A stretch of 64,000 nucleotides of DNA from Leucoraja erinacea. Taxonomy: Eukaryota. How positions within the stretch are numbered: position 1 is the stretch's first letter; every line of letters starts with the position of its first letter. Location: assembly GCF_028641065.1 (NCBI RefSeq), contig NC_073402.1, forward strand, positions 26,226,001 to 26,290,000, read 5' to 3'. The position numbers and the translations under genes were made by a program. The notes beneath the pieces were generated by a model. The model did not search any database and had not been told where the DNA came from. It saw only the letters and a list, made by a program, of their open reading frames with translations. Positions 3,292 through 47,480 of this stretch are shown here, in pieces.

Positions 3292-3518
3292 TGTGTAGGA
3301 AGGAACTGCAGATGCTAGTTTACACCAAAGATAGACGCAAAATGCTGGAGTAACTCAGCGGGTCAGAAAGCATCTATGGATAGAAAGAACGGGTGACGTT
3401 TTGGGTCGAGACCCTTCTTCAGACTGAAGAAGGGTCTCGTCCAGAAATGCCACCCATTCCTTCTGTGCAGAGATGTTGTATGTCCTGCTGAGTTACACCA
3501 GCAATTTGTGTCTATTTT
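3292..3518. mobile_element. PLE-derived palindromic element, family P1, nested in a SINE
   Basis: Palindrome centred on cccttcttcagactgaagaaggg. TSD caggtttg(t/c)aggt at 3277-3289 and 3519-3531. Confidence 0.78.
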
Positions 3519-4320
3519 CAGGTTTGCAGGTGAATTGGCTTCCGTAAATTGTCCCTAGTGTGTGCAGGACATAGAACTAATAAATGGGTGATCATTGGTC
3601 CATGTGGACTTGCTGGGCCGAAGGGCCTGTTTCCACGCTAAAAGGGGAGACCCTTCTTCAGACTGTGCTGACGTTTTGGGTCGAGACTACTCTTCAGACC
3701 AAAGAAGGATCTCGACCCAAAACGTCGCCCATTCCTTCTCTCCAGAGATGCTGCCTGTCCGGCTGAGTTACTCCAGCATTGTGTGTCTGCCTGACATTAT
3801 TTAGATAGTGATTTCAATACCAAAGAGTGGCCACATCATCATTTCCCAGTGGATAGTGAGCTAGTGCTACTTGCCTGCTCATACCTCGCTCAGACAAGGA
3901 GAGCATGTGAGGAGTTGGCTGTAGCTTGATCAAAGAAGTGGGTTTGAAGGAGAATCTTGTTGGACAAGGGGAAAGTGCAGGGAATTAGGATGGGAACATC
4001 AGTGTGTGGAGCCTTGGCTGCTGAGTGTCAAACATGGGACAAACAGAAGAGGGGGATTGATGCCCTGATTAATGTATATGGAACTCTCTGGGATGGTTTG
4101 CTGTAGTGGCAGAGATAGGAGGATTTCAGTAGAACAGTTGAATTTTAGCCAGCATATATTGGGAGAAGGGGAAAATTGGCAAAGGTTGAATGATTTGCTG
4201 TGGGTTGAACCTGGGTCGTGGGACATTTGGAAGGCCTCAGCTCTACAAAGCAGGGTGATAGCCCAAACGTTGGAAGGCTGAGGCGGGCAGAGCTGGAGGA
4301 GGCTAAAGCGAAGGACAAGT

Positions 4321-4605
4321 GGCGGCGCGGCAGTAGAGTTGCTGCATTGCCCGGGTTCGATCCTGACTACGGGTTCTGTCTGTACGGAGTTTTTACGTTC
4401 TCCCCGTGACCACGTGGGTTTTCTCCAAGATCTTCCGCTTCCTCCCACAGTCCAAAGACGTACAGGTTTGCAAGTTAATTGGCTTGGTGTAATTGTTTTT
4501 AGTGTGTAGGATAGTGTTAATGTGTGGGGATCGCTGGTCAGAGCAGAATCGGTGGACCAAGGGGCCTGTTTTCGCGCTGTATCTATAAACTAAATTAAAC
4601 TAAAC
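4321..4605 (+). mobile_element. HE1-like V-SINE
   Basis: Same head, V-domain and tail. Confidence 0.85.
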
Positions 4606-5250
4606 ATGAAAGTGGTGACAGAAGCAGACAGGGTAATGAAGGATGTGTTAGGTGTGCTTACCTTCAATGGTCAGGGTATCGAGTACAGCAGTTGAGACGC
4701 CATGTTAACATGTACATGACGTTGGTAAGGCCACATGTGGAGTACTGTGCACAGTTGTGCTCGCCCTGCTATAGGAAACATGCCATTAAAGGGCGCAAAA
4801 AAGACTTACGAAGATTTTATCAGGTCTGGATGTTTTAACTAAGAAGGAGAGGATGGATAGGCAGTGCCTACTTTCCACTGGAGCGGTGGAGGCTGAGGGA
4901 CGATCTTTTACAAGTATATAAAACCAGGAGTGACATAGATAAAGTGAATATCTATTTTTTCTCCCTAGGGCAGGAGAGTCTTAAACCAGGAGGGTAATAT
5001 TTAAAAGGGACCCGCAAGACAACTTCTTTGCTCAAAGGATGGTGCATGTATGGATCGAGCTGCCAGAGGAAGCAATAGGGGTGGATACAATTATGACATT
5101 TAAAAGACACCTGGGCGGGTACATGGACAGGAAAGGTATGGAGTATTATGGGCCAGACGCAGGCAAGTGGGACTAGCTAAATTAGGCAACTGGGTTGCCA
5201 TGGACGAGTTGGGCTGAAGGGCCTGTTTCCATGTTGTGTAACTCTGACTC
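4605..5250 (+). mobile_element. Old degraded CR1 3' fragment
   Basis: Remnant of LVRPHVEYCAQL, and tail gttgggctgaagggcctgtttccatg. Confidence 0.75.
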
Positions 5251-5937
5251 GGTGGTCAGAAGATAATCTTGGCTAGCATAATCTCGTTTTATCTGTAGTG
5301 GTGGTGGTGGTGGGGGAATAGAGGCAAGAAAATGATGGATAGTTCATAAGTTATAGGAGCAGAACCAGGCCATCAAGTCTAAACCATTCAATCATAGTTG
5401 ATCTATCTCTCCTTCTCAACCCCTTTCTCCTGTGTTATTTCCATAACCCCCGACACCCGCACTAATCAAGATAGGGGTCACATTCCTTTTGGATGGGAAG
5501 AAATTAAACACCTTTCATCGCTAATGCTTACATTAAAAACAACATTGATCAACGTATACTTTTTGTAATCTCTACCATCTGAATGAAAAAACATTGGGTT
5601 GCTTCTCCGAGGCCACAAAACTAACCCTGTTTAAATCATGTACTGATTGCAGTTGGCAATGTGAACTGGTTGCTAATTTGAAAGGGCTCTCCATTTAGTT
5701 CCACTTCCCACACCTTTCCCAAAGTCCTGAACATTTCTACTCTTTGAAAGTCATTGATGTATTTGATGTCACCATCCCCATGGCCAGCATGTTTCCAAAT
5801 GCTATAATAGGATCTAATCCTGCAACCACTACAGGTGCTGTCTGTGTGGAGTTTGTACGCACTCCCTGTAACCACGTGGGTTTTCTCTGGGTGCTCCCGT
5901 TTCCTCCCACATTCCAAAGACCAACATGTTTGTAGGT

Positions 5938-6118
5938 TAGACAAAAGTGCTGGAGAAACTCAGCGGGTGCGGCAGCATCAATGGAGCGAAGGAAATAGGT
6001 AACGTTTCGGGCCGAAACGTTGCCTATTTCCTTCGTTCCATAGATGCTGCCGCACCCGCTGAGTTTCTCCAGCACTTTTGTCTACCTTCAATTTTTCAGC
6101 ATCTGCAGTTCCTTCTTG
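5938..6118. mobile_element. PLE-derived palindromic element, family P2, nested in a SINE
   Basis: Palindrome centred on aacgtttcgggccgaaacgtt. Imperfect TSD aacatgtttgtaggtta / aacatgttttggaggtta. Confidence 0.8.
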
Positions 6119-6140
6119 AACATGTTTTGGAGGTTAATTG

Positions 6141-6263
6141 TGTAGGTAGGAACTGCAGATAGACCGAAGATAGACACAAAGTTCTGAAGTAACTCAGCGG
6201 GACAGGCCACATCTCTGGAGATGTTTCCAGGGTGACGTTTCAGGTCGAGACCCTTCATCAGAC
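6141..6263 (-). mobile_element. P1 arm with intact hammerhead-like core at 6234-6261
   Basis: Minus strand reads CTGATGA A GGGT-CTCG-ACCT GAAAC GTC ACC. Confidence 0.7.
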
Positions 6264-7546
6264 TCGATTGTAATTAGCTTCTGTAAATCGCTCCAAGTGT
6301 GCAGGTTATAAAAAAAGGGATAACAGAGAATTAGTGTACGGGTGATTGATGTTTGCCGTAGACTCGGTGGGCTGAGAAGCCTGTTTCCACGCTGTATCTC
6401 TGAACTAAACCAGGTCCTATGATCAGCAGAGAAATAATTTACCCATTAAGACTATTTTAGATGCTGTCTGCTGAACAGAAGTTTCCAACTGAAACTACGT
6501 ATTCTTCTTGAATGGTTCCAACGAGGGATTATCGGGCAGTTGAGGGACAGTACCTCCAAAACGCAACACTCCTTTGGTATAAGCTTATAATGTTGCAAAG
6601 CCTAATCATTAGCTCCAAGCCCAAGAGCTGAAATCAAAATTAATTAAATAACCAGGAGATAGTTGAGGCAGGCACTATCACAACGTTTCATAAACAATTA
6701 GACAGGTACATGGACAGGACGGGTTTGGAAGGATATGGGCCAAAAGCAGGCATGGGACTCGTGTAGCTAGAACATATTGGCCAGTGTGGGCAAGTTGGGC
6801 CAAAGGGCTTGTTTCCACACTGTATGACCCACTGTATGACTCTATGAATCTATAACCATGGTGCATACACACGTTTGTTTATGAACCTTCCGCCCTGCTT
6901 CAACTGAGTTCTGGTGGCACATGGAACTGCAGATGCTGGAAACTTGAGCAAAACAAAGTGCTGGAGGAACTCAGCGGGTCAGACAGCTTCTGGGGAGGTG
7001 ATGTTTCAGGTCGGACCTTCACACTGATGGAGCATGGGGGGAAAAGCTGGAAAAGATAGTTTTCCGCTCTTTGTACGTATTTACCAATACTATAAATGCA
7101 TCAAGGTTATTTTGATCTACAACCTCCTGTGATAATAAGTTCCATCTTACCAAACAGTTTTTTCCTCAATACCTCATTGGATTTCTTGGTACCCACCTTA
7201 CTTCTGCTCCAGTCCAAAGGAGAAATGCTGTCTCTATTTTTATTCTGGCACATTCTCAAATGACCTGCTGCCCTCAGCCTTCTTTGCCTTTCCTAAGTTA
7301 CATCAATGCCCACTACAATGGCTGATAGTAGAGCACTCTTCATCCAATTCTCTCAGGACTTCTCACTCACCATAAAATGACTGTGTTTCTCGTGTTTGCA
7401 GCAAATTTAGATTATTCCAATTCAACTTGTAGCTTCTTAATGTGAAGAGAAATCACACCCTGAAAAGATAATATGGTTCAAGAACCATATCATCATCAAA
7501 GACACACACCACCCTGGCCACGCTCTCATTTCACTCCTGCCATTGG

Positions 7547-9625
7547 GAAACATAGAGAAATTAGGTGCAGGAGTAGGCCATTCGGCCCTTCGAGCCTGCA
7601 CCGCCATTCAATATGATCATGGCTGATCATCCAACTCGGTATCCCGTACCTGCCTTCTCTCCATACCCTCTGATCCCCTTAGCCACAAGGGCCACATCTA
7701 ACTCCCTCTTAAATATAGCCAATGAACTGGCCTCAACTACCCTCTGTGGCAGAGAGTTCCAGAGATTCAAAAAGGTTTTTCTCATCTCGGTTTTAAAGGA
7801 TTTCCCCCTTACCCGTAAGCTGTGACCCCTTGTCATGGACTTCCCCAACATTGGGAACAATCTTCCTGCATCTAGCCTGTCCAACCCCTTAAGAATTTTG
7901 TAAGTTTCTATAAAATCCTAAATTCTAGAGAGTATATACCAAGTCTATCCAGTCTTTCTTCATAAGACAGTCCTGACATCCCAGGAATCAGTCTGGTGAA
8001 CCTTCTCTGCAATCCCTCCATGGCAATAATGTCCTTCCTCAGATTTGGAGACCAAAACTGTACGCAATACTCCAGGTGTGGTCTCACCAAGACCCTGCAC
8101 AACTGCAGTAGAACCTCCCTGCTCCTATACTCAAATCCTTTTGCTATGAAAGCTAACATACCATTTGCTTTCTTCACTGCCTGCTGCACCTGCATGCCTA
8201 CTTTCAATGACTGGTGTACCATGACACCCAGGTCTCGTTGCATCTCCGCTTTTCCTAATCGGCCACCATTTAGATAATAGTCTGCTTTCCTGTTTTTGCC
8301 ACCAAAATGGATCTGCCAAACAATTGCCCACTCACCCAGCCTATCCAAGTCACCTTGCAGTCTCCTAGCCTCCTCCTCACAGCTAACACTGCCCCCCAGC
8401 TTAGTGTCATCCGCAAACTTGGAGACATTGCCTTCAATTCCCTCATCCAGATCATTAATATATATTGTAAATAGCTGGGGTCCCAGCACTGAGCCTTGAG
8501 GTACCCCACTAGTCACTGCCCGCCATTGTGAAAAGGACCCGTTTACTCCTACTCTTTGCTTCCTGTTTGCCAGCCAGTTCTCTATCCACATCAATACTGA
8601 ACCCCCAATGCCGTGTGCTTTAAGTTTGTATACTAATCTCTTATGTGGGACCTTGTCGAAAGCCTTCTGGAAGTCCAGATACACCACATCCACTGGTTCT
8701 CCCCTATCCACGCTACTAGTTACATCCTCGAAAAATTCTGTCAGATTCATCAGACATGATTTAACTTTCATAAATCCATGCTGACTTTGTCCAATGATTT
8801 CACCACTTTCCAAATGTGCTGCTATCCCATTTTTAATAACTGACTCTAGCAGTTTCCCCACTACCGATGTTAGACTAACTGGTCTGTAATTCCCCGTTTT
8901 CTCTCTCCCTCCCTTCTTAAAAAGTGGGGTTACATTTGCTACCCGCCAATCCATTATTACTAATGCATCCACTATTTCTGGAGCTACTTCCTTAAGTACT
9001 CTGGGATGCAGCCTATCTGGCCCTGGGGATTTATCGGCCTTTAATCCATTCAATTTACCCAACACCACTTCCCGGCTAACCTGGATTTCACTCAATTCCT
9101 CCAACTCCTTTGACCCGCGGTCCCCCTGCTATTTCCAGCAGATTATTTATGTCTTCCCTAGTGAAGACGGAACCAAAGTAGTTATTCAATTGGTCTGCCA
9201 TATCCTTGTTCCCCATGATCAACTCACCTGTTTCTGACTCCAAGGGACCTACATTTCTTTTAACTAATCTCTTTCTTTTCACATATCTATAAAAACTTCA
9301 GTTTTTATGTTCCCTGCCAGTTTTCTTTCATAATCTATTTTTTCTTTCCTAATTAAGCCCTTTGTCCTCCTCTGCTGGTCTCTGAATTTCTCCCAGTCCT
9401 CTGGTATGCTGCTTTTTCTGGCTAATTTGTACGCATCATCCTTCGCTTTGATACTATCCCTGATTTCCCTTGTTATCCACAGATGCACTACCTTCCCCGA
9501 TTTATTCTTTTGCCAAACTGGGATGAACAATTTTGTAGTTTATCTATGCAGTCTTTAAATGTCTTCCATCGCATATCCACCGTCAACCCTTTTAGAATTA
9601 ATTGCCAGTCAATCTGGCAATCTGG
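7547..9625 (-). mobile_element. CR1-clade (HER1-like) LINE, 5'-truncated, with RT domain
   Basis: ORF 7908-9104 contains KSPGPD, NYRPVSLTS, QHGF, YLDFQKAFDKV, GVPQGSVLGP and KFADDTK. The upstream part is frameshifted. The 3' end reads ctactcctgcacctaat..ctatg. Confidence 0.92.
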
Positions 9626-22302: not shown

Positions 22303-22577
22303 AGAGTTGCTGTGTTATGGTGCCAGAGACCCGGGTTCGATCCTGACTATCAGTACGGAGTTTGTACATTGTCCCGGTGACCTGCGTGGGTTTTCTCCGA
22401 GATCTTTGGTTTCCTCCCACACTTCAAAAACGTACACGCTTTTAGGTTAAGTGGCTTGGTATAAAAATCAAAAAATTGTCCTTAGTGTATGCGTGTGGGG
22501 TTGTTAATGTGCAGGGATCGTAGGTCGGTGCGGACCCAGTCTGGTTCTGCGCTGTTTCTCTAAACCAAACTAAACTG
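22303..22577 (+). mobile_element. HE1-like V-SINE about 50 nt from the donor of the large exon
   Basis: gggttcgatcc B box, V-domain, ctaaaccaaactaaa tail. Confidence 0.85.
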
Positions 22578-22628
22578 AAACTCTGAAAGTGAATTTCTCA
22601 TGTGAGCCAGTCCTTGCTGCTGCCTTAC

Positions 22629-25600
22629 CTCACTAACCCGGAGCTTCCGTGCACTGGATGGGACCAACTTGCCCGTCTGGCGGCGTGGAGCTGTGGCCAT
22701 GGTGTAGATCTCCTTGCCGGACATCTGCTTGGACCTCAGGAGGGCGAGGCTGAGCTTGGTGGACATGCCTGGCAGATTGGGGTTGTGCAGGCTGATGCAC
22801 CAGCTGGCGTAGACGGAGGACCTTGGGTCGGTGTGCTGGCTGGGGTTGGGCTTGGTGTACTTCAGGTAGCACCAGCTGACGTTGGTGGTGGTGTGGAGGC
22901 TGGGGAAGCGATGGGCATCACCTGCGTCCGTGCAGGGAACAGCAGCGGGCTTTGCGGGGCTGGCACTCGACGGTCGGTCTGGTAATGTGCTGGACGGGAG
23001 CGTGTGAAACTCTTGCAAAGGTACTGGAGATCTCTCTTGGATGACCTCCAGATGATCTTCCTTCTTCACTGGTCCGAGGGAAGTTTTACCTCTGAATAAA
23101 TGTCCAGACCAGTGCTCGTGTTTACCAGAAGTCCCAGGTGGCTGCAGGGAGGACGTGAGGGGAGGAGACGAGGTCTGAACAGCCGAGACCTTGGTCTCAG
23201 CTTGGCACCGTCTGGACGGCTGGGGAGAGTGTCTTCTCAAAGCCTCGTCGGTTCTTGCTTCAGCTTTCTCTTCCGATTCTTCCTCTATTTCTTCCTCCTT
23301 CACTCGCTTTTGCTGCTGGGTCTCCATCGTCAGTTCCAAGCTCCCGGCTGGGGACAACATACGTTTGCTCCCACCGATGGTGGACGGGTAGGTCTCGGCT
23401 GCATAGGTACCTTCTGTGGTGGACCCGAGCATGAGGCAACCTGTCCTCTCCGCCATGGGCACGGGCACTCGGAGGTAGGGCGAGGGGAAGAAGTCCCGGT
23501 GGTGGCCGGCGATCATCTGCGCCAAGTCCAGGCCGATACCGTGCACGCCGGCGCTGCAGACCAGGGTGGCCTTGGGTCTGCTGTCCTCCACCCTGCAGAT
23601 GACCACGGTGGTGGAACTATCTGCCGACTGGGTGACCAGCATCTGGGACAGGGTGGTGTACATGGCACTGCCGTAGGTGGGCAAGTGCTCCTGGACCCTG
23701 ACCGGCACCACCAGGGACACCGTGGGCCGCAGGGGCTCAGGGGAATGGGTGATGGTGGGGGGTGGGAAGGAGGGAGAGGGGCTGTACTCCGGCAGTGGGT
23801 GGAAGGGGGGTTTGCGGTCCCTGAATCGCCCTCCGGCCTGCAACTGGAAGGCCAGCTGGGATCGTGCGGGCAGGTAGGTGGGAGGCTGGGCCGGGGTGGG
23901 GGTCAGGGGCAGGAGCGGGGAGGGCCGGGCGGGCAGCTCGGGGGCCACAGGATGGGGCAGGGGGTAGTGGGGGTATGGGAGAGTTGGGGGTGGCGGCTGG
24001 AGAGGGGCCAGCATCCCCTCTGGCGCTGAGAGCAGGGCTGACATCGGGCCTTGCTGCTGCTGGGGCCCGAAGGCCGAGAGGTACCGCGGCGGGTAGTGGG
24101 GCCCCTCCTGGAAGGCCGGGGCGGGGAAGGGGCGATGGGCCTCGCAGTGTGGCGGGGGGTCCCCGGGTGGGCAGGGACGGGGTGCTGGAGGAGGGGGGGA
24201 GCGGTACCTCGCCACCGGGCCTAGCTCGGCCTTGTCTGGCCTGGGCGGGAGCGGTGGCGGAGGGTCGGGCCCGGGGTCTGTGCTCCCGCACAGCGAGGTC
24301 TGGCGAACCAGCAGGCACCTCCGGCGCTCCCAGGCGGGCGAGAGGAGCCTGACGCCGGGCCCGGCCTCCGAGGAGAGGCTGCCGTAGTCGAAGGACTTGC
24401 TGCGGGCCTCGGGGGGCGGCTGGTGGGCGGCCGAGGAAGAGGAGGAGGAGGAGGCCTGCTCCGAGGACGAGCGCCTCATCTCCCTCTGCTGCTGGTAGTG
24501 AGCGGGCACGGTCAGCATGTGTGGGCCCGACGGCCGGACCTGGGCCTCGACGCGGGCCTCGACGCCACCATCCCCCTCCCTCTCGAAGGAGGCCGAGAGG
24601 CTGGAGCCGCGGGACAGGCTGCTCTCCTGGCTGGGGCTGCGGGAGAGCGGCGGGGCCGACTCGAAGCTCGACTCGCCCGACGACTGCGACATGTCGGCCA
24701 GCCGCAGGCGCTTCTTCTTGGGCGGCAGCTTCTCGGTGGGGAACTGCGAGAGGGTCTGGCTCCTCTGCGGCCACTGGAACTCCTCGGGAGGAGGCTTGTC
24801 CGGCTCCTTGGCGGCGGCGGCAGCGGCCGGGCCCTCCTCCTCCTCCTTCTTCTTCTTCTCCTCCACCTTCTCCGGCTCCTCGGTCACCAGGATCTCGGGC
24901 ACCTGGATCTTTCGTTGGCGGACGAGCCGGGCCTGCAGCGGGTGGTGGTGATGATGATGGTGATGGTGGGGCCTTGGTGGTGGTTGCCACGGCCTTCTCT
25001 CCTCGGCCTCGACCACCACCAGGCCGCTATATTCGGCCTCCTGCGAGCTCAAGGCGACCAGGTGCTCGGCGGGATCGAGAGGGGGCGCCGCTTCGAAGGA
25101 TCCGGGCCGGCCCAGCGTGTTGGTGTGTTGGATGACGGAGATCTCCTTCCCCGTCGTGCGTTTGGAGCCATCCGAGGCCGGCGTCGACGATGGCGGCCTC
25201 CCCTCCGCCGCGGTGACCATCGGCCTGATCCTCGTGTCCGCGGCCGCTTCAATTGCCATCAACGGTAAGCCGGGGCTGGGAGCGGGAGGGCCGGGAGCGG
25301 GACCGACACCGACGGCAGACTGGGGCTTCGGGCCTACGCCATAGGGCGGCTCCTCATCGTCGCCCAGACTCTTCTCTTTCCTCCTCTTCCTGGCCGGCGT
25401 CAGCTCCAGCGAGGGCCGCAGCTTGTAGTGGACGATCTGCGGCTGCGGCTGCAGCTCTGGGCCGGGGGGCCTGTGCTCGGCCTGCGGGCCGCCGAGGGCA
25501 GGCAAGGCCGGGGGCTGGGGCTGAGGCCGAGGCCGGGTGCGAGGGGCGTGCAGCTCCGAGCAGTAAAACTTCTTGTGCGTCTCGTAGTTGGTCCGTTTCC

Positions 25601-27587
25601 GATAGCGGGCCCCACAGATGTCGCACTCGTACATCAGCCCCTTCACCCTCGGCCCTTTCTTGGCCCTCCTGGCGGGCTCGGCCTCGGCCTCTCCATGCTC
25701 CTCCCCGACCCCGGGCCTCTCCTTGGCCGCCTCCCCCCCTTCCTCCTCCACTGCCTGGTACTCCATGCCCGAGGGCAGCTCGATGGCCTTCTGCCTCTTC
25801 AACATGCGGTGGTGGGTGATCAGGCCCTGGCTGAAGGCCTGGTCCGGCTCCGTGGTCCGGTCGTCGAACGAGTGGCTGCCCTTGAAGGCGGCGGGCGCAG
25901 TGCAGGAGGTGCCGGCCGACGGCATGGAGTTGCTCCTGGTCAGGGGCACGGTCTCGGTCAGGCCTGTGTGGCCGCGGTGGGCGAGCCTGCTGGCCTCCGG
26001 ACACAAGGCCTGCTTGGGGTCGAAGTGGAAGGAATCCCTGGAGGTGCCGGGCTTGGGCGACTCGATGCTTCCCCTCCTGGAGAGGGAGGTGCGGCGGGGC
26101 TTGACGCTGTCGATCTGCCGGGTGTCCACCACCGCCTCGTTGATGGTGATGAGTTTGGTGATGTGCTCGATGACATTCTGCTCCATCTGGGCCTTGGGCA
26201 GGGAGAAGGAGAGGCCCGACGGCTTGTCCTCCATGGCCGGCGGAGGCAGCCTGAGCCTGCTGTGGGTGGCGCTGGCCGCGATCATGGCAGTCCTCTGGCC
26301 GTAGCGCCCGTACTTGCCCAGGATGATCTCGGCGTACGACTTGGCGCTGGCCTGCGGCGGGCTGAGCTGCTGCTGCTGCTCGGCACTCTCCGACCTGGAG
26401 AAGTAGCCCGACTCCGTGCTGCCTTTGCTGCCCCCCGGGCTCAGGAAGGTCTGAGTCTGCTCGTCCGCGGCCAGCGCCTTCCTCCTCTCGCTCAGGCGCA
26501 GGGCCAGCCTCTGCTTGATGGTGTGAGAGTCGTCCGGCTTGTGGCTGTAGGAGAGGTCCAAGGAGGAGGACTCCGAGAGGTGGCAGCCTTCGTCCAGGGA
26601 CGACGACGACGACGGCTCGCCCGGCTGAGCCAGGGTGAAGGCCGGCTGCCTGGGGCTGGCCTCCGGAGGGCCGAAGGAGCTGCAGCCGGGAATGTGCTTG
26701 TGCTTGGACGGGGGGTCGAGCGAATGACCCGGCGGCATCCCGACCGTCTCATCCTCGGAGTCTGTGCTTTCGTCTCCCTCCGTCTGCTCCTCGGGCTCGT
26801 CCCCGCTCAGCTTCTCCGCGTCCAGGCCCGAGGTGCCCGGGTAAGGCTCCCCCATGGAGCCCGGCACCAGCCCAGCCTTCAGCTTGTGGGCGTGAGACTT
26901 CCTGTGCTTGTACAGGTTGCTCTTGGTCTTGAATGAGAAGCTGCAGGAGTGGCAAGGGTAGGGCCGCTCCCCCGTATGCGACCTGATATGTTTCTGGAGG
27001 ACGCTGGGCTTGGCGCAGGGGCGGCTGCAGAACTGGCAGATGTACTTGCCCGGCTTCTGGGGCTTCTTGTCCTTCCTGGGCAACTCGTCTGCTTTCAAGG
27101 GGACCTGCCCTGAGTGGTGGCCGTGGACGGGTTGGGCTGGTTGAGGCTCCTCCTTGGCCACGATGGGGGAGCGGGAGGGGAGAAGATGCCGGTGGGGGTG
27201 GAGGCCGGAGGGGTGGAAGGGAGCGGACACCATGGGACCTCTGGGGTCGAAGAGCTGCCAGGATCTCCCTTCCAGACCGAGCTCCGGCTTAACCGCAGCC
27301 ATGAACGCCGAGGCCATGGGTTGCTGCAGGAGTTGCGGTGAGCTGTGGTGGACCTGCTCGTAGGAGGAGTAGGAGCTGGGGTGTTCCGTCTGATCGGGCG
27401 CCAGGACCTGTTGATGGGCAGGAACGGGCAAGGCGCCAGAGAAGCAGGGCTGCAGCTGGCCCGGGTGGTAAGCAACGGTTGACCTCCCAGCCGAGGGACC
27501 AGCTTCAATCTGGCTCGACTTCCTGCTAGGGCTGTGCTCGGACCTCCCTGTACTCTTCTGCTGGGCAGAGCTCGACTCGGGCTCCAT
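22629..27587 (-). CDS. HIVEP3: HIVEP3/Schnurri-3 large first coding exon (1653 codons): N-terminal C2H2 zinc-finger pair, central CCHC finger, acidic/Ser-rich regions
   Basis: The ORF matches human HIVEP3 as I recall it, block by block: [144 protein letters not shown]. ATG context is gtcATGg. The donor GAG|GTAAGG after 22629 is phase 0; the ORF track runs on into the intron. Confidence 0.95.
25560..25631 (-). other. HIVEP3: Isolated CCHC zinc finger of HIVEP type
   Basis: [24 protein letters not shown]. Confidence 0.9.
26886..27044 (-). other. HIVEP3: N-terminal C2H2 zinc-finger pair (ZAS-N)
   Basis: [31 protein letters not shown]. Confidence 0.93.
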
Positions 27588-27909
27588 GACCCAGGGAGAG
27601 GCTTCACGTTCGTCTCTGCGGAACGGCGGCAGGATTCATTTGCTAAATGTCCGCTGCTCTTTAGACTCTCTCTGCCCAGCTCACATCTGCTGGCAATGGT
27701 CGCCGAGTTGAAACGCAGACACAACGTCCCTGCCTGATAACGATCCAAAGAACCAGCGATGCTTGCTTTTAAGTTCACTTCATGGCGAGTCCCTTTGTAG
27801 ACGATTATCAATCGCGCACAATGTCAAGATTGTCATTCCAAACAACTTTTCCAGGACCTTCTTTAAAGCTTCTTTTTCCTTCCATTATAACCTGGCGTTG
27901 ACCCTGATC
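27588..27909 (-). other. HIVEP3: 5'UTR part of the large HIVEP3 exon, containing five uORFs
   Basis: Acceptor ttgctttatcttgcag|GATCAGG at 27910/27909. Unique sequence contiguous with the ATG. Confidence 0.75.
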
Positions 27910-31094: not shown

Positions 31095-31957
31095 CCGTAA
31101 GAACAGTGCAGCCCCCAAACCCCTATTCATCAATGGGGACTGTGTGGAAAGGGTCTCAGACTTCAAATTCCTGGGCACACAAATTACGGAGGATCTCTCT
31201 TGGACTACAAACACCACCACAGCAGTCAAGAAGGCCCAGCAGCAACTCTACTTTCTGAGGATCCTTTAGGAAAAATAGCATAGAAATGGGCGGAGAAGAT
31301 GCTGGTTTATATTCCATTTTCTGCTCCTTCTTCCATTTAGGCACCAGCATAGACTATTCATCAATGGGGACTGTGTGGAAAGGGTCTCAGACTTCAAATC
31401 GACACAAATTACGGAGGATCTGTGCTGGTGTAAACTGTATAAAGGCCAAGCATGGTATGCCAGCACAACTCTGCAGCGGACAGGAGAGCCCTTCAAAGGG
31501 TCATCAACACCGCACAAAAAATCACTGGCTGCCCACTGCCCTCCCTCCCTGAAGGACATCTTCAGCTCTCGCTGCCTTGGCAGGGCAGCCAACATCCTGA
31601 AGGACCCCTCCCACCCTGGACACAACCTGTTCCACCTGCTGCCCTCTGGCAGACGGTACAGGTCTTTCAAAGCTCGCACAAACAGACTCAGAGACAGCTT
31701 CTACCCCATAGCCATACATGAACTTAACATTGCAAAATAAGAAATAACACTCACATTCAACTGAATGGTTCTACCTCAGCTGCTATTGTTATTTATCTGT
31801 AATTTTTTTTAATATGTATATATTTTTACCTTTTTTTATATATTTAAAATTGCTCTTGTGAATCGCACCGTGGGATTGACTTTTAAATTTTGTTGTACCG
31901 TGTGCAATGACAATAAAGAGATAGATTCATGCATTCATTCATTCATTCATTCATTCA
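31095..31957 (+). mobile_element. Rex1/Babar-type 3' fragment with a scrambled internal duplication
   Basis: INGDCVERVSDFKFLG..KAQQQLYFLR; HPGHNLFHLLPSGRRYRS..SFYP. (catt)n tail. Confidence 0.85.
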
Positions 31958-32278
31958 AATCATAGCGGTAGTGTTGATGCCTCACAGCACCAGAGACCCG
32001 GGTTCGATGTTGACTATGGGTACTGTCTATACGTAGTTTGTACGTTCTCCCCGTGACTGCGTGGGTTTTCCCCGGGTGCTCCGGATCCCTTCCACACTGC
32101 AGAGACGTACAGGTTTGTAGGTTAATTGGCTTCGGTAAAAGTGTAAATTGTCAGTGCGGTCAGTGTGGACTGGGTGAGCCGAAGGGCCCGTTTCTGCACT
32201 GTAGATCTAAACCAAACTAATCTCTCGTTCCACTTCACCAGCGACCACGAGTGAACAAGCAAGGTGCCTTATCCTGTA

Positions 32279-32461
32279 TAAGAAGGAACTGCAGATGCTG
32301 GAAAACCGAAGGTAGACAAAAGTGCTGGAGAAACTCAGCGGGTGCAGCAGCATCTAAGGAGCGAAGGAAATAGGCAACATTTCGTCCCGAAACCTTGCCT
32401 ACTTCCTTCGCTCCTTTGATGCTGCTGCACCCGCTGAGTTTCTCCAGCACTTTTGTCTTCT
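32279..32461. mobile_element. PLE-derived palindromic element, family P2
   Basis: Inverted arms. TSD tgcc(t/g)atcctgta-type, 14 bp with one mismatch, at 32265-32278 and 32462-32475. Confidence 0.8.
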
Positions 32462-35400
32462 TGCCTGATCCTGTAGTTGGGCGCAGGCGAAAATGTGCCA
32501 CCACTACCTCTAGGGATCTGGCCGTGCCTGCCAGATTTTTAATGTATATTGGAGGAAAATTAATGAGGAGCACACTCAGATCAGCCGAACACTTTGACTC
32601 TGACATCAGGAGGAGAATGGGGAGTGCAGGGGAGAGATAAGACTTTGTCTTCCATCACAGCGAGGAGGAGATTCGCTGCGATGGATGTTTGTGTAAATTG
32701 TGTTGTGTCTTGGTCCTTCCACGTTTGTACGACTGCAGAAACCAAATTTCGTTTGAACCTCAATGAGGTTCAAATGACAACAAATAAATTGTATCACTGG
32801 CGGAGGCATGCAGATCCCAGAGGCCCACGTTAGGTCTGGGAATGTGGGACGCGGTGCTCGTGGATAAAGAACCGGTGACTCTCTCCATCCACACAGCAAC
32901 CTTCCAGGAAGGAAACTGCCTCAAGGTGCTTCTCTGGAGCCTGATCAACTGACACCGATCCACGCAGGCAGAAGCCACTTCTGCATTTCCACACCTGCAA
33001 GTGTGAGAACCACAAGCTACCGTCAGCGACTCATCGCTGTGCACTGACACTGAACGCCACTTGGGAATTCAGTAAGGGGAGCGAGAAGCTGCAGCACCTT
33101 ACTGCACCCTCTTACTCGAGAATTCACCCAAGCAGACAGTCTGAACCTCCCCCCCCCCCAGTGTGGAAATATCAACGACTAGCAGGCATAACGTGAAGGT
33201 GAGAGGCAGGGTTTAAAGGTGATGCTTAGTTTAGAGAACCAAGGTGGAAAAGGGAGAGCGGGGGGGGATGGGGAAAGACCTCTGCTCTTTAGCTTGCTAT
33301 ATAACTATATAACAATTACAGCACGGAAACAGGCCATCTCGGCCCCTCTAGTCCGTGCCGAACACTTATTCTCCCCTAGTCCCATCTACCTGCACTCAGA
33401 CCATAACCCTCCATTTCCATGTACCTATCCAATTTATTTTTAAATTATAAAATCGAACCTGCCTCCACCACTTCCACTGGAAGCTCATTCCACACAGCTA
33501 CCACTCTCCGAGTAAAGAAGTTCCCTCTCATGTTACCCCTAAACATCTGTCCCTTAATTCTCAAGTCTTGTCCTCTTATTTGAATCTTCCCTACTCTCAG
33601 TGGGAAAAGCTTATCCACGTCAACTCTGTCTATCCCTCTCATCATTTTAAAGACCTCTATCAAGTCCCCCCTTTACCTTCTGCGCTCCAATACCCTCCCA
33701 CGGAAAGGGCTGAGGCTCTGGGATTTCTTCCATCAACCTCTCTACCTCAGACCTTGATCTCCCTAAACATACAGCAATCAATCCTACAAATCGTATTATA
33801 AAAATTGAGCGGTAGAGTTGCTGCTTTACAGCGCTGGAGACACGGGTTTGATCCCGACTACGCGTTCTGTCTGTACGGAGTTTGCACGTTCTCCCCGTGG
33901 CCTATGTGGCTTTTCTCCGGGATCTTCGGTTTCCTCCCACACTCCAAAGACGTTTGGGTTTGTAGGTTAATTGGACTGTTATAATTGTAAATTGTCCCTA
34001 GAGTGTCGGATTGTGCTAATGTGCGGGGATTGTTGGTCGCCGCGGACTCGGTGGGCCGAAGGGCCTGTTTCCGATCTGTATCTCTAAACAAAAACTATGC
34101 CCTCTGGTCCTCGTGAATGCCCCTTAACCTCAACCTTTCACCATTTGAGTGCGTTTTCTGGCTTCGGTTTTGACAATCCTGCTCATATTACACACAAACC
34201 TTGACATGGAATAGGAAAGGTTTATAGGCAAATGGGACCCGTTTAGATGGGGCATCTTGGTTGGCACCGAATGGCCTGTTTCTGCCCTTCGATGCATGTT
34301 TCCTTAGTGTGTGGCTAGCTCTTCTCCAAAGCAAGCCAATTCCGAGTTACTCCAGCTTTTTGTGCCTGTTCTTGGTTTAAACCAGCATCTGCAGTTCCTT
34401 CCTGCACATCTCGTCTGCTCCACTGTAAAAATATCTTCAATGTATGCCAACTTTGAAGAAATTCTCCTCCTCTCTCTGACAAGAATAGTGCAAGATCCTC
34501 TCTCGCTGCTCCCTCTCTGCGATTCCTCCTGTTCATATCTTTCATTAATTTGTTCTACATCTGGCTATATCTCCCGTTTCCCTTTCCCCTGACTCTCAAG
34601 GGTCTAGACCCGAAACGCCACCCATTCCTTTTCTCCAGGGATGATGTCTGACCCACTGAGTTACTCCAACTTTTTGTGTCTGTATCTTGAGTTATTTTAA
34701 GGGATGGGCAGGCAATGAGAACCATGGTGGTGTTTTGCAACTGGCTTGCATCAGTTGCCATGCATTACTGCAATGCGATGCCTTAGCAATGCTGATCGAG
34801 TGTGCGTCATGGGTCACTGAGCCCTTGGAACGCTCTATCCTCGCACCTGGACTGGAGCTATACCAGACACGTGCAGTCTGTAGACAACCACTGCTCCAAA
34901 TTCAGAAGCTTAAGTGAGATTATTTCAATGGTTCCTTTATTATCACATGTACCAAGGTACAGTGAAATTCTCTATTTGCATACAGATCAGAAGGTTATTG
35001 TCCTACACGAGTACATAATACGCTGGCTTTACTTTGCACTACATTCCCTTATCATATATCCATGCACTGTAAATGCTCGATTGTAATGTATTTATCTGCT
35101 GACTGGATAGCATGCAACACAAGCTTTTCACTGTACCTCGGAACACATGACAATAAACAAAACTGACAAACAGCCCACTGAGTCTATATGCAATTGTGAT
35201 GAGGTTTTGCTACCATTTCACAGTCCCTCCTCACTGGCCCTTTCTCTAGAGTCCGACACCGTCACCCTCCACCTCCTCACTGATTCCAGGTCTATGGGGG
35301 CGGGCAGTTACGATAGTCACCGAAGCCAATTAACCTCCAAACCTGCATTTCTTTGGAGTGTGGGAGGAAACCGGAGCACCCGGCGAAAGCCCCACGCGGT

Positions 35401-38750: not shown

Positions 38751-39879
38751 AACATGATGTCAAAGCTGATACAAATCTTGATACAGAGATACCACGTTGC
38801 CAGCCAATGTCTTCAAGGTCAGGCACCATTAGAGTGGTGTCCAGGTCCTCTGTGATTCACGATACCAAAGCCAAATGGCAGTGGAGAGAATGATGCACAA
38901 TAACCCCATAATTATTAAATATTAAATATTATTAGCCCACGAGCACGAAGGGATCAACAAAATATTTATCCCGCAAACACTTCAATAGTGGAGCATATCT
39001 GATTGTTACAAAGACTTAAGGGTGGCACAGCAGTAGAGTTGCGGCCTTACAGCGCCAGAAACCAGGGTTCAATCCTGACTACGGGTGCTGTCTGTACAGA
39101 GTTTGTACAGTCTCTCTGTACAGACAGCGTGGGTTTTCTCCGAGATCTTCAGTTTCCTCCCACACTCCAAAGACGTACAGGTTTGTAGGTTAATTAGGTT
39201 GGTGTAAATGTAAATTGTACCGAGTGTGTGTGTGTGTGTAGGATAGTGTTAGTGTGCGGGAATCACGGGTCAGTGCAGGCCTGGTGGGCCGAAGGGCCTG
39301 TTTCTGCACTGTATCTCTAAACTAAACATGCATTTATCTGACACCTTTCATGGACACCTGATATCCAAAATTGCAGTGAAACCAATGAATGACCTCTTTC
39401 TTGTAACCAAAAATGAGACAAATCAACTCAGATTTCCAAAATGTAGCTACCAGTTTTTTCCAGAAGTTGACTTGAGTGATCAGTATCAGGGAAGAATATC
39501 GGAGAGAATTGTTCTATTTTCAAAAGCAATGTTGCATCTTTTAGACCTGCCCGAGGTACGATCAAGTTTCTTGAGTTTTAAGCATCTTCGAAGGGCTTTT
39601 TACTCCGGTTTCTTGACATCAGTAGCAAGCACTATTAATATGATGACAGGCCAAAGATTGCGAAGGTGCATCATGCAGAGCTACCAGCAGATGGCACCGA
39701 CATGCTCATACAATCCTTTATTCCCCATAGACCCCACTTCCCTGCACACACAAATACACATTTAGCTCTGGTGAGTGTGCGCATTTTTCTGGCCGGGCAA
39801 ATGGGAGCTCTAGGTTGTTGGATGAAAACAGGATGAGAATGGACTTAAAAATCACAAAGCAATCAGCCGAGTTATCTTG

Positions 39880-40066
39880 GGTTACACAAAAAAGCTGGAG
39901 AAACTCAGCAGGTGCAGCAGCATCTATGGAGCGAAGGAAATAGGCAACGTTTCGGGCCGAAACGTTGCCTATTTCCTTCGCTCCATAGATGCTGCTGCAC
40001 CCGCTGAGTTTCTCCAGCTTTTTTGTGTAACCTTCGATTCTCCAGCATCTGCAGTTCCCTCTTTAA
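39880..40066. mobile_element. PLE-derived palindromic element, family P2
   Basis: Near-perfect palindrome. 16-bp TSD cagccgagttatcttg at 39864-39879 and 40067-40082. Confidence 0.82.
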
Positions 40067-43000: not shown

Positions 43001-45174
43001 TTTATGTCTATCAGCATATTCTTTCTTTCTCCTTAAACGTCTCCATAATATCTGCCTGAGCCCTTCCATACGGTGACAAGAGATTTCTCCTTGTCACCAA
43101 TCGAAATTGGTGAATCTGTGGAATACTTTGCCACAGAAGGCTGTGGAGGACAGGTCAATGGATATTTTTAAAGCAGAAATAGATAGATTCTTGATTAGTA
43201 CAGGTGTCAGGGGCTATGGGGAGAAGGCAGGAGAATGGGGTCAGGAAGGAGAGATAGATCAGCCATGATTGAATGGTAGATTAGACTTGATGGGCTGAAT
43301 GGCCCAATTCTCCTCCTATCACTTATGACCTTATGACATGAGTTTGGTCGCGAGTTAGCAGAGACCAAACTCTCTGATGTTTGGTCCCCAACATCAGGGA
43401 ATAACTCAGCGGATCAGGCAGCATTTCTGGAGAGCATGGATCTGTAGTGTTTCTGGTCCAGACCAGTCTGAAGAAGGGTCCATACCCGAAATGTCAGCCA
43501 TACACTAGCTCTACGTCTTTGAAGTGTGGGAGAAAACCGGAGCACCAGGAGAAAACCCACGTGGTCACAGGAAGAGTGTGCAAACTCCGTATAGACAGCA
43601 CCCATGTCAGGATTGAACATGGGTCTCTGTCGCTCTAAGGCAGCAACTCTACTGCTGTGCTACTGTGCCGCCCTCTTGATCGATCGAGGAGAGGTGAGAA
43701 AACCACAGTTTAAGAATAAGGAGTAAGCCATTTAGAACGGAGACGAGGAAACACTTTTTCTCACAGAGAGTGGTGAGTCTGTGGAATTCTCTGCCTCAGA
43801 GGGCATTGGAGGCAGGTTCTCTGGATGCTTTCAAGAGAGCTAGATAGGGCTCTTAAAAATAGCGGAGTCAGGAGATATGGGGAGAAGGCAGGAACGGGGT
43901 ACTGATTGTGGATGATCAGCCATGATCACATTGAATGGAGGTGCTGGTTTGAAGGGCCAAATGGCCTGCTCTTGAACCTATTGTCTATTGTCTATTGTCT
44001 AAAACCGTGTTTGATTGATTTGTTGGTTCAATTACTTTATCGAGACTTGTACGAAGGAACTGCAGATGCTGGTTTAAACCGAAGATAGACACAAAGCGCT
44101 GGAGTAACTGAGAGGGACTGGCAGCATCTCTGGAGAGAAGGAATGGGTGATGTTTTGGGTAGAGCAAAGAAGGGTCTTGACCCGAAACGACACCCATTCC
44201 TTCTCCAGAGAAGCTGCCTGTCCCGCTGAGTTACTCCAGCACTTTGTGTCTATCTTTACTATATCGAGGCGTTGTTCAGAAGTAGCGGAAGATCAGACAC
44301 TGTTGCCTTCGCTTGGTGCTCGGAGCCCATATTGCAACAGGGCCTCCTGTAAACTCTTTGTTACAATTCTGGAGAGGATCTTCCACAATCCCTCCCCATA
44401 GCAAGATTGCAATGATAAAAAGCCATTTCCTTAATAATGACTGGTTCGATGCCATCAACTCATTTAAAAATAAAAATGCTGCTTGGTTTATAGTCTTTGG
44501 ATGATAATCTGACTGAATCGCTCTGAATCCTGTCCAGAAATAATAAACGACAAACTCATATCAACCACATGTTTTCAGTAACAAAGAAATACTCAGAAAG
44601 AAAGGGTTTCAATTTATTAAGTGTCTTTCACAACCTAAATGCTTTACAATTAAAGTTCATAACTGATAGGAGCAGAATTAGGCCATTCGGTCCATCAAGT
44701 CTACTCCGCCATTCAATCATGACTGATCTAGCTCTCCCTCCTAACCCCATTCTCCTGCCTTCTCCCCATAACCTCTGACTCCCATTGTAATCACTAAAGA
44801 AGCACTTCGTTCAAATTCAAACAAACGTCAATGAAATGAAAACTGAATCATATATTTTCATGATTTGAGACGAGGTATAATTATTGATGAGATTTATCCC
44901 ACCTAAAATTTCCGATACAGAAGCCACCATGAGTTGTTTTGTGGTAGCTTCCCCAAGCAAAGACGCGTACAGATTTGATTAACAAGTTATAGGAAAGATG
45001 TGATTGCACTGGAGGGTGTGCAGGGGAGCTTTACAAGTATATTAATCGGGCTGGAATATTGTAGTTATGAGGATTTTTGGATAGGCTGAGGTGGTTTTCT
45101 GTGGAAAATAAGCCGACGACCCAAGATGGTGAATTTAGAGTGGAACCCACAGTAAATACAAAGGAACATCGACA

Positions 45175-45365
45175 CATAATGTGGGTCAGGCAGCAACTCC
45201 GCAGAAAGGGAACAGGTGACGTTTCGGGTCAAGACCCTTCTTCAGACTAGACTGGAAACGTCACCTCTTCCTTTTCTCCAGAGATGCTGCCTGTGCCGCT
45301 GCGAGTTACTCCAGCATTTTGCGTCTATCTTCGGTGTAACCCAGCTTCTGCAGTTCCTTCCGACA
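45175..45365. mobile_element. P1 palindromic element with intact hammerhead-like core (minus strand, 45218-45245)
   Basis: Minus strand reads CTGAAGA A GGGT-CTTG-ACCC GAAAC GTC ACC. Inverted arms. Confidence 0.75.
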
Positions 45366-46570
45366 TAAATACAAAGGATCGCTTTTAAGTTTGTGTAGAA
45401 ATACAGCATAGAAATGGACCCTTTGCCCCATTGAGTCCACGCTGACCATTGATCACCTATTCGCACTAGTTCTGTGTTATCCCATTTTCTCATTTCCCCC
45501 CCCCCTACATACTACAGACAATTTACAGAGGCCAATACACCTACACGTCTTTGGGGTGTGGGAGGAAACCAAAGCACCTAGAAGAAACCAATGCGGAAAC
45601 AGGGAGAATGTGCAAACTCCACACAGACAGCACCGGCGGTCAGGATTGAACCCTGGTCCCATAATTTAGCAGCTCTACTGGTAATGGGTCAAATAATCAC
45701 ATTATGTGTTGCCCAGATTCTCCATTAAATAATAAAACTTAAAGTGCTGGAGTAACACAGTGTCAGACAGCATCTCTAGAGAGAATAGATAGGTGACATT
45801 TCGGGATTGGGCCCTTGAGGTTGGAAGAAAAGTCCTGACCCGAAACATCACTATAGATGTTCTCCAGAGATACTGCCTGACCAGCTGAGTTACTGTAGCA
45901 TTTTGTGTTATTCTTAGGTAAACCAGCATCTGCAGTTCTTTGTTATTATAAACAATCTCCTTCAATGCTATGGATCTCAGGAGAGAACTGGGTTATCATG
46001 AATTAGTACGGGTGTTGGGGGTTATGGGGAGAAGGTAGGAGAATGGGGTTGAGAGGGAGAACTAGATCAGCCATGATTGAATGGCGGAGTAGACTTGATG
46101 AGCCAAATGACCTAATTCTGCTCCTGTTCATCTTATGAACATGCAATAATGAAGTGTTTTGCATTCATTTCAACTGATTCTGACATCACAACTGTGAATT
46201 TATTCACTAAAGCAAAATGCTCAAGATTTAGGGCAAGCCTAGAAGTGTGAGATTTCGGTGCCAACTGGATGGAGGTGCTTGAGGTTAGAAGCCTGGAGCA
46301 TTAGTGTATGGAGACAGTGGCTTGGATCCCCACTGTGTTAAATTCATCACACGCAGGGCTAGTCAATCTCTCGGCTGCCAAAGGAAATGTTGGAGTAAAC
46401 CTCAAGGTCTGACCATTCCATGTCGGCTTACATAATCGCAGACCCATCCAAAACACTGCCATCAGTATCCTCACTCACACCAGTCTCCCTTCACTCCGTT
46501 CATCTTGACATAGGTTTAAAGTGAAGTGGGGGCGGAATATTTAATAGGAACTCGAGGGGCAACTTTTTTT

Positions 46571-46607: not shown

Positions 46608-46658
46608 GTGGTGGGTATACGGAACTAGCTGCCAGAGGAGGTAGTTGAGGCAGGTACC

Positions 46659-47480
46659 TCATCTGGCTCTGAACACCAGGAAAACAAAAGAGCTCATTGT
46701 CGACTTCAGGAGGCACAGCACCGACTTAGCCCCCCTACACATCAACGGCGAGTGTGTGGAGAGGGTCAACACCTTCCGGTTTCTCGGCGTCCATATCGCT
46801 GCTGATATCTCCTGGACGGACAACACGATAGCGGTCATCATGAAGGCTCAGCAGCGGCTGCACTTCCTGAGGGTCCTCAGGAAGCACAACCTGGACTCTA
46901 ACCTGCTGCTGACCTTCTACCGCTCGTCCATCGAGAGCCTGCTGACATACTGCATTACAGCATGGTATGGCAGCTGCACCATGGCAGACAGGGAGAGGCT
47001 TCAGCGGGTAACCAGGACAGCGCAGAGGATCATTGGTTGCCCTCTCCCCTCCCTGATGGACATCTACACCTCCCGCTGCCTTAGCAGGGCAAAGAAGATC
47101 ATCAAAGACAGCTCCCATCCTGCGTTTGGACTGTTCGACCTGCTGCCCTCTGGAAGGCGCTATAGGTGCATCAAATCCAGGACAAACAGACTCAGGAATA
47201 GTTGCTTTCTGAGAATTATAACTACTATTAATTCTAATTCACACATGCACTGACTTCACAGCCCAACACGGACTTCCATCTGTATATATGTATATATGTA
47301 TGTAGCGCCGCAGAAATTGTGCACCTATTCCCGCCCCCCTCCCCCCCCCCCCCCTCTCCCTTCTGTTTTTTGTTTTTCTGTTTCTTGTTTTTTGTGCTAA
47401 ATTGTATGTATGCACTGAGTACGAGCAGCTTTCATTTTCACTGTACATGTATAGTGACAATAAATGGCATATTTATCTAT
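46659..47480 (+). mobile_element. Rex1/Babar-type LINE 3' fragment inserted in a CR1 tail
   Basis: Open ~200 aa: LNTRKTKELIVDFRR..INGECVERV..FRFLGVHI..KAQQRLHFLR..FYRSSIESLLTYCI.AWYG..LLPSGRRYR. TSD aggtacc at 46652-46658 and 47481-47487. Confidence 0.88.

Follow-up and report, generated by a model that had tools for sequence, protein, structure and literature searches.

The minus-strand motif at 45218-45245 in a 64,000-nt window of the Leucoraja erinacea genome (the window being the whole stretch of contig NC_073402.1 that was analysed) is very probably the minimal hammerhead of a Neptune-type Penelope-like element (PLE) pseudo-LTR (pLTR), stranded in a 200-bp head-to-head stub in which it is predicted to be folded shut and likely inert. 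The core itself is a genuine minimal hammerhead core of a known class, a further member of the ribozyme class described in 2014, in a copy that is predicted to be dead.

The 45218 core and the insertion that holds it

The minus strand at 45218-45245 reads CTGAAGA-A-GGGT(CTTG)ACCC-GAAA-CG-TC, letter for letter as in an earlier, sequence-only reading of this DNA. The catalytic boxes CUGANGA, GAAA and NUH are all present, together with the extra base after A9, the G10.1-C11.1 pair and the palindromic 15.2-16.2; helix I has 2 bp, the palindromic ACGU takes the place of helix III, and the cut is predicted to fall between 45218 and 45217. Assignment of the motif to the minimal type-I hammerheads of PLE pLTRs, with an extra base after A9, an ACGU helix III and a 2-bp helix I, is thus borne out. 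Hammerheads of this kind (min-HHR) were described by Cervera and De la Pena in 2014 in metazoan PLE pLTRs, including those of the fish elements Xena, Poseidon and Neptune, where they occur in thousands of solo and opposite-strand copies and are inactive as monomers (PMC4209133). The present family shares with them the core boxes, the extra base between 9 and 10.1, G10.1-C11.1, the palindromic 15.2-16.2, the lack of a real helix III and a genome-wide scatter of mostly solo or opposite-strand copies. Its stem II of 4 bp and helix I of 2 bp differ from the 7-8 and 4-5 bp of schistosome families, whereas the D. virilis helix I also has 2 bp (PMC4209133). The parts of that paper considered here name no cartilaginous fish among the hosts.

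Twelve sites in the window lie within five mismatches of the 45218 core, and 45218 alone is fully intact, intact meaning that the ACGU palindrome, a stem II that pairs and is closed by G-C, and every catalytic base are kept. At each of the eight places where the sequence-only reading listed a decayed copy, one is present. The second core that it called intact, at 6234-6261 on the minus strand, does exist and does carry CUGAUGA, but a G10.1-U11.1 wobble replaces the conserved G-C, so that it is not fully intact, and CUGAUGA, taken there as canonical, is a minority variant of this family (T at N7 in 15 of 144 old copies). A loose hammerhead pattern gave 13 matches in the window against 6.2 ± 3.5, a count reached in 8 of 100 shuffles and not significant. 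An Rfam search of the window returned 27 matches at E<=10 with no hammerhead among them, only below-threshold miRNA-like matches on the palindromes.

What had been overlooked is that the core sits at the centre of an inverted twin insertion. The 200 bp from 45166 to 45365 comprise two fragments, both from the 3' end of this element, that meet head to head and are bracketed by a 13-bp target-site duplication, the copies of which start at 45153 and 45366 (Table 1). The arm that carries the core has an internal deletion of ~14 nt, and its 5' end is the commonest in the family. In a minus-strand RNA the tailed arm would be transcribed first, and it is predicted to pair with GAAACGUC; the pairing with GAAACGUCAC is predicted to measure 12 bp. 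Fold prediction for the twin RNA gives P(unpaired)=0.00 for G12, A13, A14 and C17, and forcing the hammerhead fold in the whole twin carries a predicted penalty of 22 kcal/mol. The corresponding cost is ~6 kcal/mol for the same arm alone, for an old solo copy or for a young full-length element, so that master-like contexts would not favour the active fold by themselves; energy models of this kind are blind to tertiary and protein-bound folds. The upstream arm is thus predicted to lock GAAAC-GUC in a duplex, the 45218 copy being shut off by its own inverted half.

Table 1. Features of the window discussed in the text
Feature	Position	Strand	Description
HIVEP3-like frame of large first coding exon	22560..27635	-	1,691 codons; first ATG 27587; context only
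Minimal hammerhead core	45218..45245	-	CUGAAGA, extra A, 4-bp stem II with CUUG loop, GAAA, palindromic ACGU, GUC
Left target-site duplication, 13 bp	45153..45165	+	with the right copy, the only two exact occurrences in the window
Tail-less arm	45166..45248	-	5' end at A of initiator-like (C)AGT, 3 nt before core
Junction between arms	45249..45253	.	5 nt, repeat of the adjoining five bases
Tailed inverted arm	45254..45365	+	5'-truncated at G12; PLE tail of ~36-40 nt at about 45330-45365
Right target-site duplication, 13 bp	45366..45378	+	with the left copy, the only two exact occurrences in the window
Solo tailed arm inside SINE-like repeat	6139..6264	-	core 6234-6261; 5' start at A of AGT
Young-subfamily twin	5939..6124	.	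146-bp palindrome joined inside stem II, plus tail
Similar twins	324-477, 32275-32462, 39884-40063		from sequence

The parent element and the conservation of its fold

A search for GIY-YIG domains placed decayed frames directly upstream of the motif, and when that GIY-YIG frame served as the query, 149 of the 150 scored matches were 89-93% alike. At all 14 long-frame loci examined the core follows the stop codon, ~85-125 nt past the end of the frame. The encoded protein combines a reverse transcriptase (RT) with a YIDD motif, a CxxC linker and, at the C terminus, a GIY-YIG domain; the Pfam matches (RVT_1, E=3e-6; GIY-YIG, E=5e-3) both fall under the curated cut-off. The unit runs from a pLTR with core through the tail, ATG, RT, CxxC linker and GIY-YIG to a second pLTR with core, over ~3.95 kb (3,948 bp in L191). 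Tandems of pLTR, ORF and pLTR with a core in both pLTRs, counted by core pattern plus repeat, were present at six of the eight loci examined (L191 and L193-L197), and their pLTR repeats are 98-99.4% identical. The marks of a PLE were found together: partial tandems that form pLTRs, inverted 5'-truncated copies and a one-sided tail. The suggestion, made in the sequence-only reading, that these repeats are ribozyme-bearing retroelements has therefore gained an autonomous RT and GIY-YIG element linked by the 14 loci and the tandem pLTRs. On its sequence features the family is the end piece of an EN+ Penelope-like element with the layout of Neptune, as judged by the CxxC linker. From that linker we take the clade to be probably Neptune, as against Nematis. 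A Zn-finger-like linker between RT and EN marks Neptune/Nematis (PMC8557442).

The full tandem copies are those of a young subfamily, in which stem II has a UUCG loop and the triplet is GUU. The two cores of the window, at 45218 and 6234, belong to an older subfamily whose ORF-linked copies were found only decayed; no full-length master of it appeared among the loci examined, and its link to the PLE runs through decayed GIY-YIG stretches and through the young subfamily, about 78% alike. The likely ATG stands 167 nt past the inferred RNA start, beyond the tail. In full-length copies (L191:4110-7810 and L192-L197) the RT-EN frame usually does not share the reading frame of the N-terminal one that begins there, and a C-rich stretch with indels lies between the two; frameshifting, decay or assembly error may be behind this. 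The youngest lineage (L191:3982-4012) has acquired the GUU triplet, U-G as the first helix I pair, a U-G in stem II and the UUCG loop. U-G pairs and a GUU triplet would be expected to weaken cleavage.

The top three GIY-YIG matches came from a second PLE family, represented by three near-identical intact 759-aa RT + GIY-YIG frames (L069:340-3836, L070:4177-6453, L071:4162-7613; G000 C23, C37 and C39), all within ~7 kb of contig ends. These frames were considered as the source of the repeat and rejected, as they have 31% identity to the Neptune frame and no link to the repeat; the two of their loci that were checked have no hammerhead pattern. They are preceded by a ~420-aa frame ending in a stretch that we take to be esterase-like, and at L070 satellite repeats and G-rich, telomere-like ones lie alongside. 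It would be unusual for a PLE with an endonuclease to sit at chromosome ends.

Comparison with distant PLEs from metagenome contigs, 40-60% alike in protein, placed the core behind the frame at 24 of 48 loci and antisense at 0 of 48 (seven of 55 loci, with <300 nt of flank, having been dropped), and most of the remaining loci hold decayed versions of it. Relative to this family the flanks and loop II differ and the boxes are kept. In an alignment of 13 sequences 85.7% of cells are paired, a figure equalled in 0 of 500 shuffles and compared with 4-47% in slid controls, and changes on both sides occur at 10.2-11.2, 10.4-11.4 and 2.2-1.2; the set consists of essentially two families, so that these represent few independent events and not 11. 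A third possible core (L298, 273 nt past the frame) was excluded from the alignment because its helix I did not fit. A check proposed in the sequence-only reading, that of covariation, has come out in its favour, with compensatory pairs in stem II and helix I across PLE families. Taken as sequence comparison, these results suggest that the hammerhead fold is selected between lineages. In the distant PLEs (L271-L350) the core is also preceded, at about 30-35 nt, by a TATA-like box, and the motifs at the tail boundary resemble those of this family although the flanks are unrelated.

Within the genome, changes between lineages of the motif are found only at N7, loop II, 11.4, H17 and 1.1, positions at which hammerheads tolerate change. 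Individual genomic copies, by contrast with lineages, decay neutrally. The core is intact in 19 of 144 old copies (13%) and in 19 of 35 young ones, 31% of old copies differ at G12, much as they do at other CpG sites, and the median mismatch per column is 8.5% in the core and 9.6% downstream (p=0.20). Pooled mismatch is lower in the core, at 8.9% versus 13.2% downstream in old copies (p=6e-6) and 2.3% versus 5.4% in young ones (p=0.01), a difference that we ascribe to subfamily-diagnostic columns downstream because the column medians do not differ.

Position relative to HIVEP3

The large frame of the window was named as HIVEP3 by Atlas with very high confidence, and a zinc-finger exon lies directly to the left of the window (locus L199). 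The 6234 core is intronic, because it lies between these two exons. The 45218 core stands 17.6 kb upstream of that frame's first ATG; it may or may not be part of the HIVEP3 transcript, possibly in a 5'-UTR intron, and location is its only tie to the gene.

The sequence-only reading had noted that both cores lie on the sense strand of HIVEP3. There is no preference for that strand: the window has 26 plus and 21 minus arms (p=0.56), and exact family cores number 8,710 and 8,701 genome-wide. It is highly improbable that 45218 is an active, co-opted ribozyme that cuts HIVEP3 pre-mRNA, alone or with another intronic copy, and tunes its expression. The core is letter-perfect and on the strand of the gene, and at ~400 arms per Mb dimer partners would be common in long introns; yet its helix I has 2 bp, it may lie outside the transcript and is predicted to be occluded by the arm transcribed first, and a share of old core-spanning copies stays intact regardless. 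Furthermore, a monomeric min-HHR showed no activity in vitro (PMC4209133), and the ribozyme of the anole PLE required protein (PMC11167929). As marks of host co-option, strand enrichment is absent and decay of the core is neutral. Active ribozymes on the HIVEP3 sense strand are not supported: the copies are 5'-truncated stubs with neutral decay and no strand bias, and the 45218 copy is predicted to be occluded.

Other repeats surround these copies. A SINE-like family has about 17-20 copies across the window (e.g. 3136-3310, 31957-32220 and 39022-39330), presumably with a tRNA-like head and a resemblance to elasmobranch SINEs, and PLE stubs often lie inside such copies, as at 6139-6264. Fragments of LINE-type reverse transcriptase frames occur at 7908-9128(-), 31279-31740(+) and 46645-47253(+). 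Near-perfect 146-bp palindromes of the young subfamily recur at 5939-6084, 32310-32459 and 39880-40029, with a joint that is self-complementary across stem II and GAAAC. On miRNA models they reach 40-90 bits, which is below cut-off, and their intronic transcripts would fold into long double-stranded RNA.

Copy ends, the element RNA and the role of the ribozyme

The exact 28-nt core of the old family has 17,411 matches in the 2.19-Gb genome (reversed control 0) and the exact young core 14,359, compared with about 4,000-9,000 in coelacanth and Xenopus (PMC4209133). In 105 random 10-kb stretches we counted 417 arms (reversed control 0), about 4% of the sampled bases, and their density extrapolates to an estimated 870,000 or so genome-wide. 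No relatives were found among viral contigs.

The 5' ends of these copies cluster 2-6 nt before C3 (15 of 50 young solos), and in old solos the modal end is the A of CAGT. Genome-wide, exact young counts fall from 14,359 through 10,121 to 6,587 over the five bases upstream of TCTGA (54% lost, 14% per base), compared with a fall from 54,648 to 52,954 over the two bases across the cut site (3.1% lost, 1.6% per base). At most about 3.5% of the 54,648 could start at the cut site, as a genome-wide upper bound, and only one of 50 young and none of 195 old solos do; we therefore rejected the view that stubs begin at the ribozyme cut and are fossils of cleavage in vivo. In a small sample truncation falls again further upstream (15/32 versus 2/17, p=0.026). 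Reads from three raw RNA runs, mapped onto a young full-length copy rather than the window locus, have loose ends that cluster at the same bases with a peak at the A of CAGT; they revealed no molecule starts or ends, though ends at the cut site may still occur, since passenger copies dominate the reads (79-96% run into unlike sequence). Two single-cell runs have a strand skew of 4:1 to 25:1 at the 3' end of the element (L191:3800-4110) that is absent from the bulk run. One contig of run X1 joins the region past the ATG (L191:3981-4176) back to the base before the core, 196 back with 27 letters between, and could be a genomic mini-tandem or a circular RNA.

From this pile-up of copy ends, the initiator-like TCAGTCT, 3 nt before the core, is the likely start of the element RNA. 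TCAGTCT matches the initiator consensus YYA+1NWYY (PMC5287114), with +1 at the modal copy end. The main rival to this start site is that the pile-up records an RT stop or template switch before a C-rich tract, or a splice acceptor (a pyrimidine tract plus CAG), which we regard as somewhat unlikely. The upstream sequence is indeed C/T-rich and ends in CAG, TCAG-T-CTGA is nearly self-complementary, the ends spread across five bases, and helix I is where a D. virilis intron ends (PMC4209133). On the other side, the upstream G and A are mostly kept (86 of 93 and 73 of 86 copies), and the peak holds at -30 to -33 in old subtypes despite differing upstream spacing, while the fit to the initiator consensus points to transcription; a splice-acceptor origin was rejected because no exon-1 sequence is common to the copies. 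The 5' junction shows no excess of a cap G (G 8, T 7, A 6). In the distant PLEs, two inverted arms (L278 and L283) also begin at the core edge, a parallel that is suggestive only.

With this start the core would span +4 to +31, and it could be conserved chiefly as a downstream core-promoter element to which the hammerhead look is secondary. In D. virilis the Penelope promoter is internal, lacks a TATA box and includes a DPE-like RGACGTGY (PMC2377424); in the present family an ACGT lies near +28. We consider such an origin quite improbable, however, since the compensatory pairs in stem II and helix I are an RNA-level signature and lineage changes are confined to the hammerhead-tolerated positions given above (N7, loop II, 11.4, H17 and 1.1). 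A C3/G8 swap also gave rescue in the anole PLE ribozyme (PMC11167929). Promoter and ribozyme roles of the core may coexist.

The 3' ends of copies form two clusters, at roughly +63-67 and +102-104 relative to the cut site, which match the two tail-defining RT starts of PAc, the Poseidon of Anolis carolinensis (Frangieh et al. 2024, PMC11167929). Of 58 classifiable twins, 48 have the tail on one arm and not on the other (28 expected, p=2e-7), 11 of 69 having been left out as their tail class was indeterminate. A target duplication of at least 8 nt is present at 20 of the 58 twins and at 20 of 77 short solos, as against 1.5% and 1.1% in controls, from which it follows that stubs are direct insertions. 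Other PLEs are known to have inverted pLTR insertions in which the tail is confined to one end and the duplication measures 8-10 bp (Arkhipova et al. 2013, PMC3846280; Craig et al. 2021, PMC8557442), and the present copies resemble them in their head-to-head 5'-truncated form, the 30-40-bp tail at one end, the target duplication, the partial tandems and an initiator-like motif in the pLTR. They differ in that both arms measure ~85-115 nt, duplications reach 16 bp and about a third of the arms are in twins.

With the RNA start as given above, stubs probably arise as follows. The endonuclease would make a staggered cut at the target, and RT would prime from one or both target ends at two internal RNA sites, about 65 and about 103 nt past the cut site. 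cDNAs begun in the 5' pLTR would run off the 5' end of the RNA to leave stubs of ~97 or ~134 nt, and two cDNAs meeting head to head would yield hairpins such as 45166-45365. The template would be uncleaved RNA, and the ribozyme would be kept by selection on master elements, likely working only as a dimer or with the element protein, not in stubs. Going further, we tentatively propose, at somewhat less than even confidence, that the mRNA of Neptune-type PLEs opens with the hammerhead, transcription starting at an initiator 3 bases before C3, which would explain a helix I of only 2-3 bp. RT beginning ~100-135 nt downstream would run off the cap and leave hundreds of thousands of ribozyme stubs in the genome. 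Cleaved RNA would never be copied, so that the ribozyme, far from making the transposition template, may decap or de-tail the RNA, as a dimer or on protein, and act as an off-switch at its 5' end. The two cut DNA strands would be primed at two different, coupled sites of the RNA.

PAc offers a close experimental counterpart, its ribozyme being protein-assisted and dispensable for insertion in vitro (PMC11167929). Both elements have a hammerhead in the pLTR and two internal RT starts downstream that define a tail; in both, the two target strands are extended, uncleaved RNA appears as the template and no RNA reads end at the cut. The element described here differs in its CxxC linker, of Neptune type, and in its likely ATG beyond the tail, that of PAc lying at stem II, and in 48 of 58 genomic twins the RT start is not the same on the two strands, whereas PAc in vitro showed no strand difference (PMC11167929).

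The stubs might instead form a non-autonomous family of SINE- or retrozyme-like kind that sustains itself through renewed transcription and re-insertion by the PLE protein, which we judge unlikely. On this view each stub would bring its own initiator-like start and the two RT start sites. Short copies are present in huge numbers with fixed 5' ends, and they have target duplications of their own. However, stubs that begin at the start site are found in three old subtypes and in two of the three young ones, usually together with long copies of the same subtype (the counts are small and most copies unclassified), twin junctions vary from copy to copy, and long tandem arrays were not noticed in an incidental view of the 105 sampled stretches. 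Non-LTR retrozymes were reportedly described by Cervera and De la Pena in 2020. PLE-derived non-autonomous retrozymes are known, and resemble these stubs in being short, non-coding, related to PLE pLTRs and hammerhead-bearing, but are head-to-tail arrays with at least two complete HHRs (bioRxiv 10.64898/2026.07.22.740005). The 45218 locus, a head-to-head twin with one core, was rejected as a retrozyme for that reason.

In the literature searched we found no account of this family in cartilaginous fish or of PLE copy ends that mark a start site at the hammerhead. The 45218 locus is by itself of little weight, being one of the roughly 870,000 estimated stubs. The young insertions, in their tens of thousands, amount to a natural run-off experiment that bears on what the PLE hammerhead does: their ends mark the likely start of the RNA, they indicate that cleaved RNA is almost never integrated, in agreement with one in vitro study, and the arms of inverted insertions use different RT start sites. 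The intact-looking young tandems offer a ready system for dimer- or protein-assisted cleavage and for the start site.
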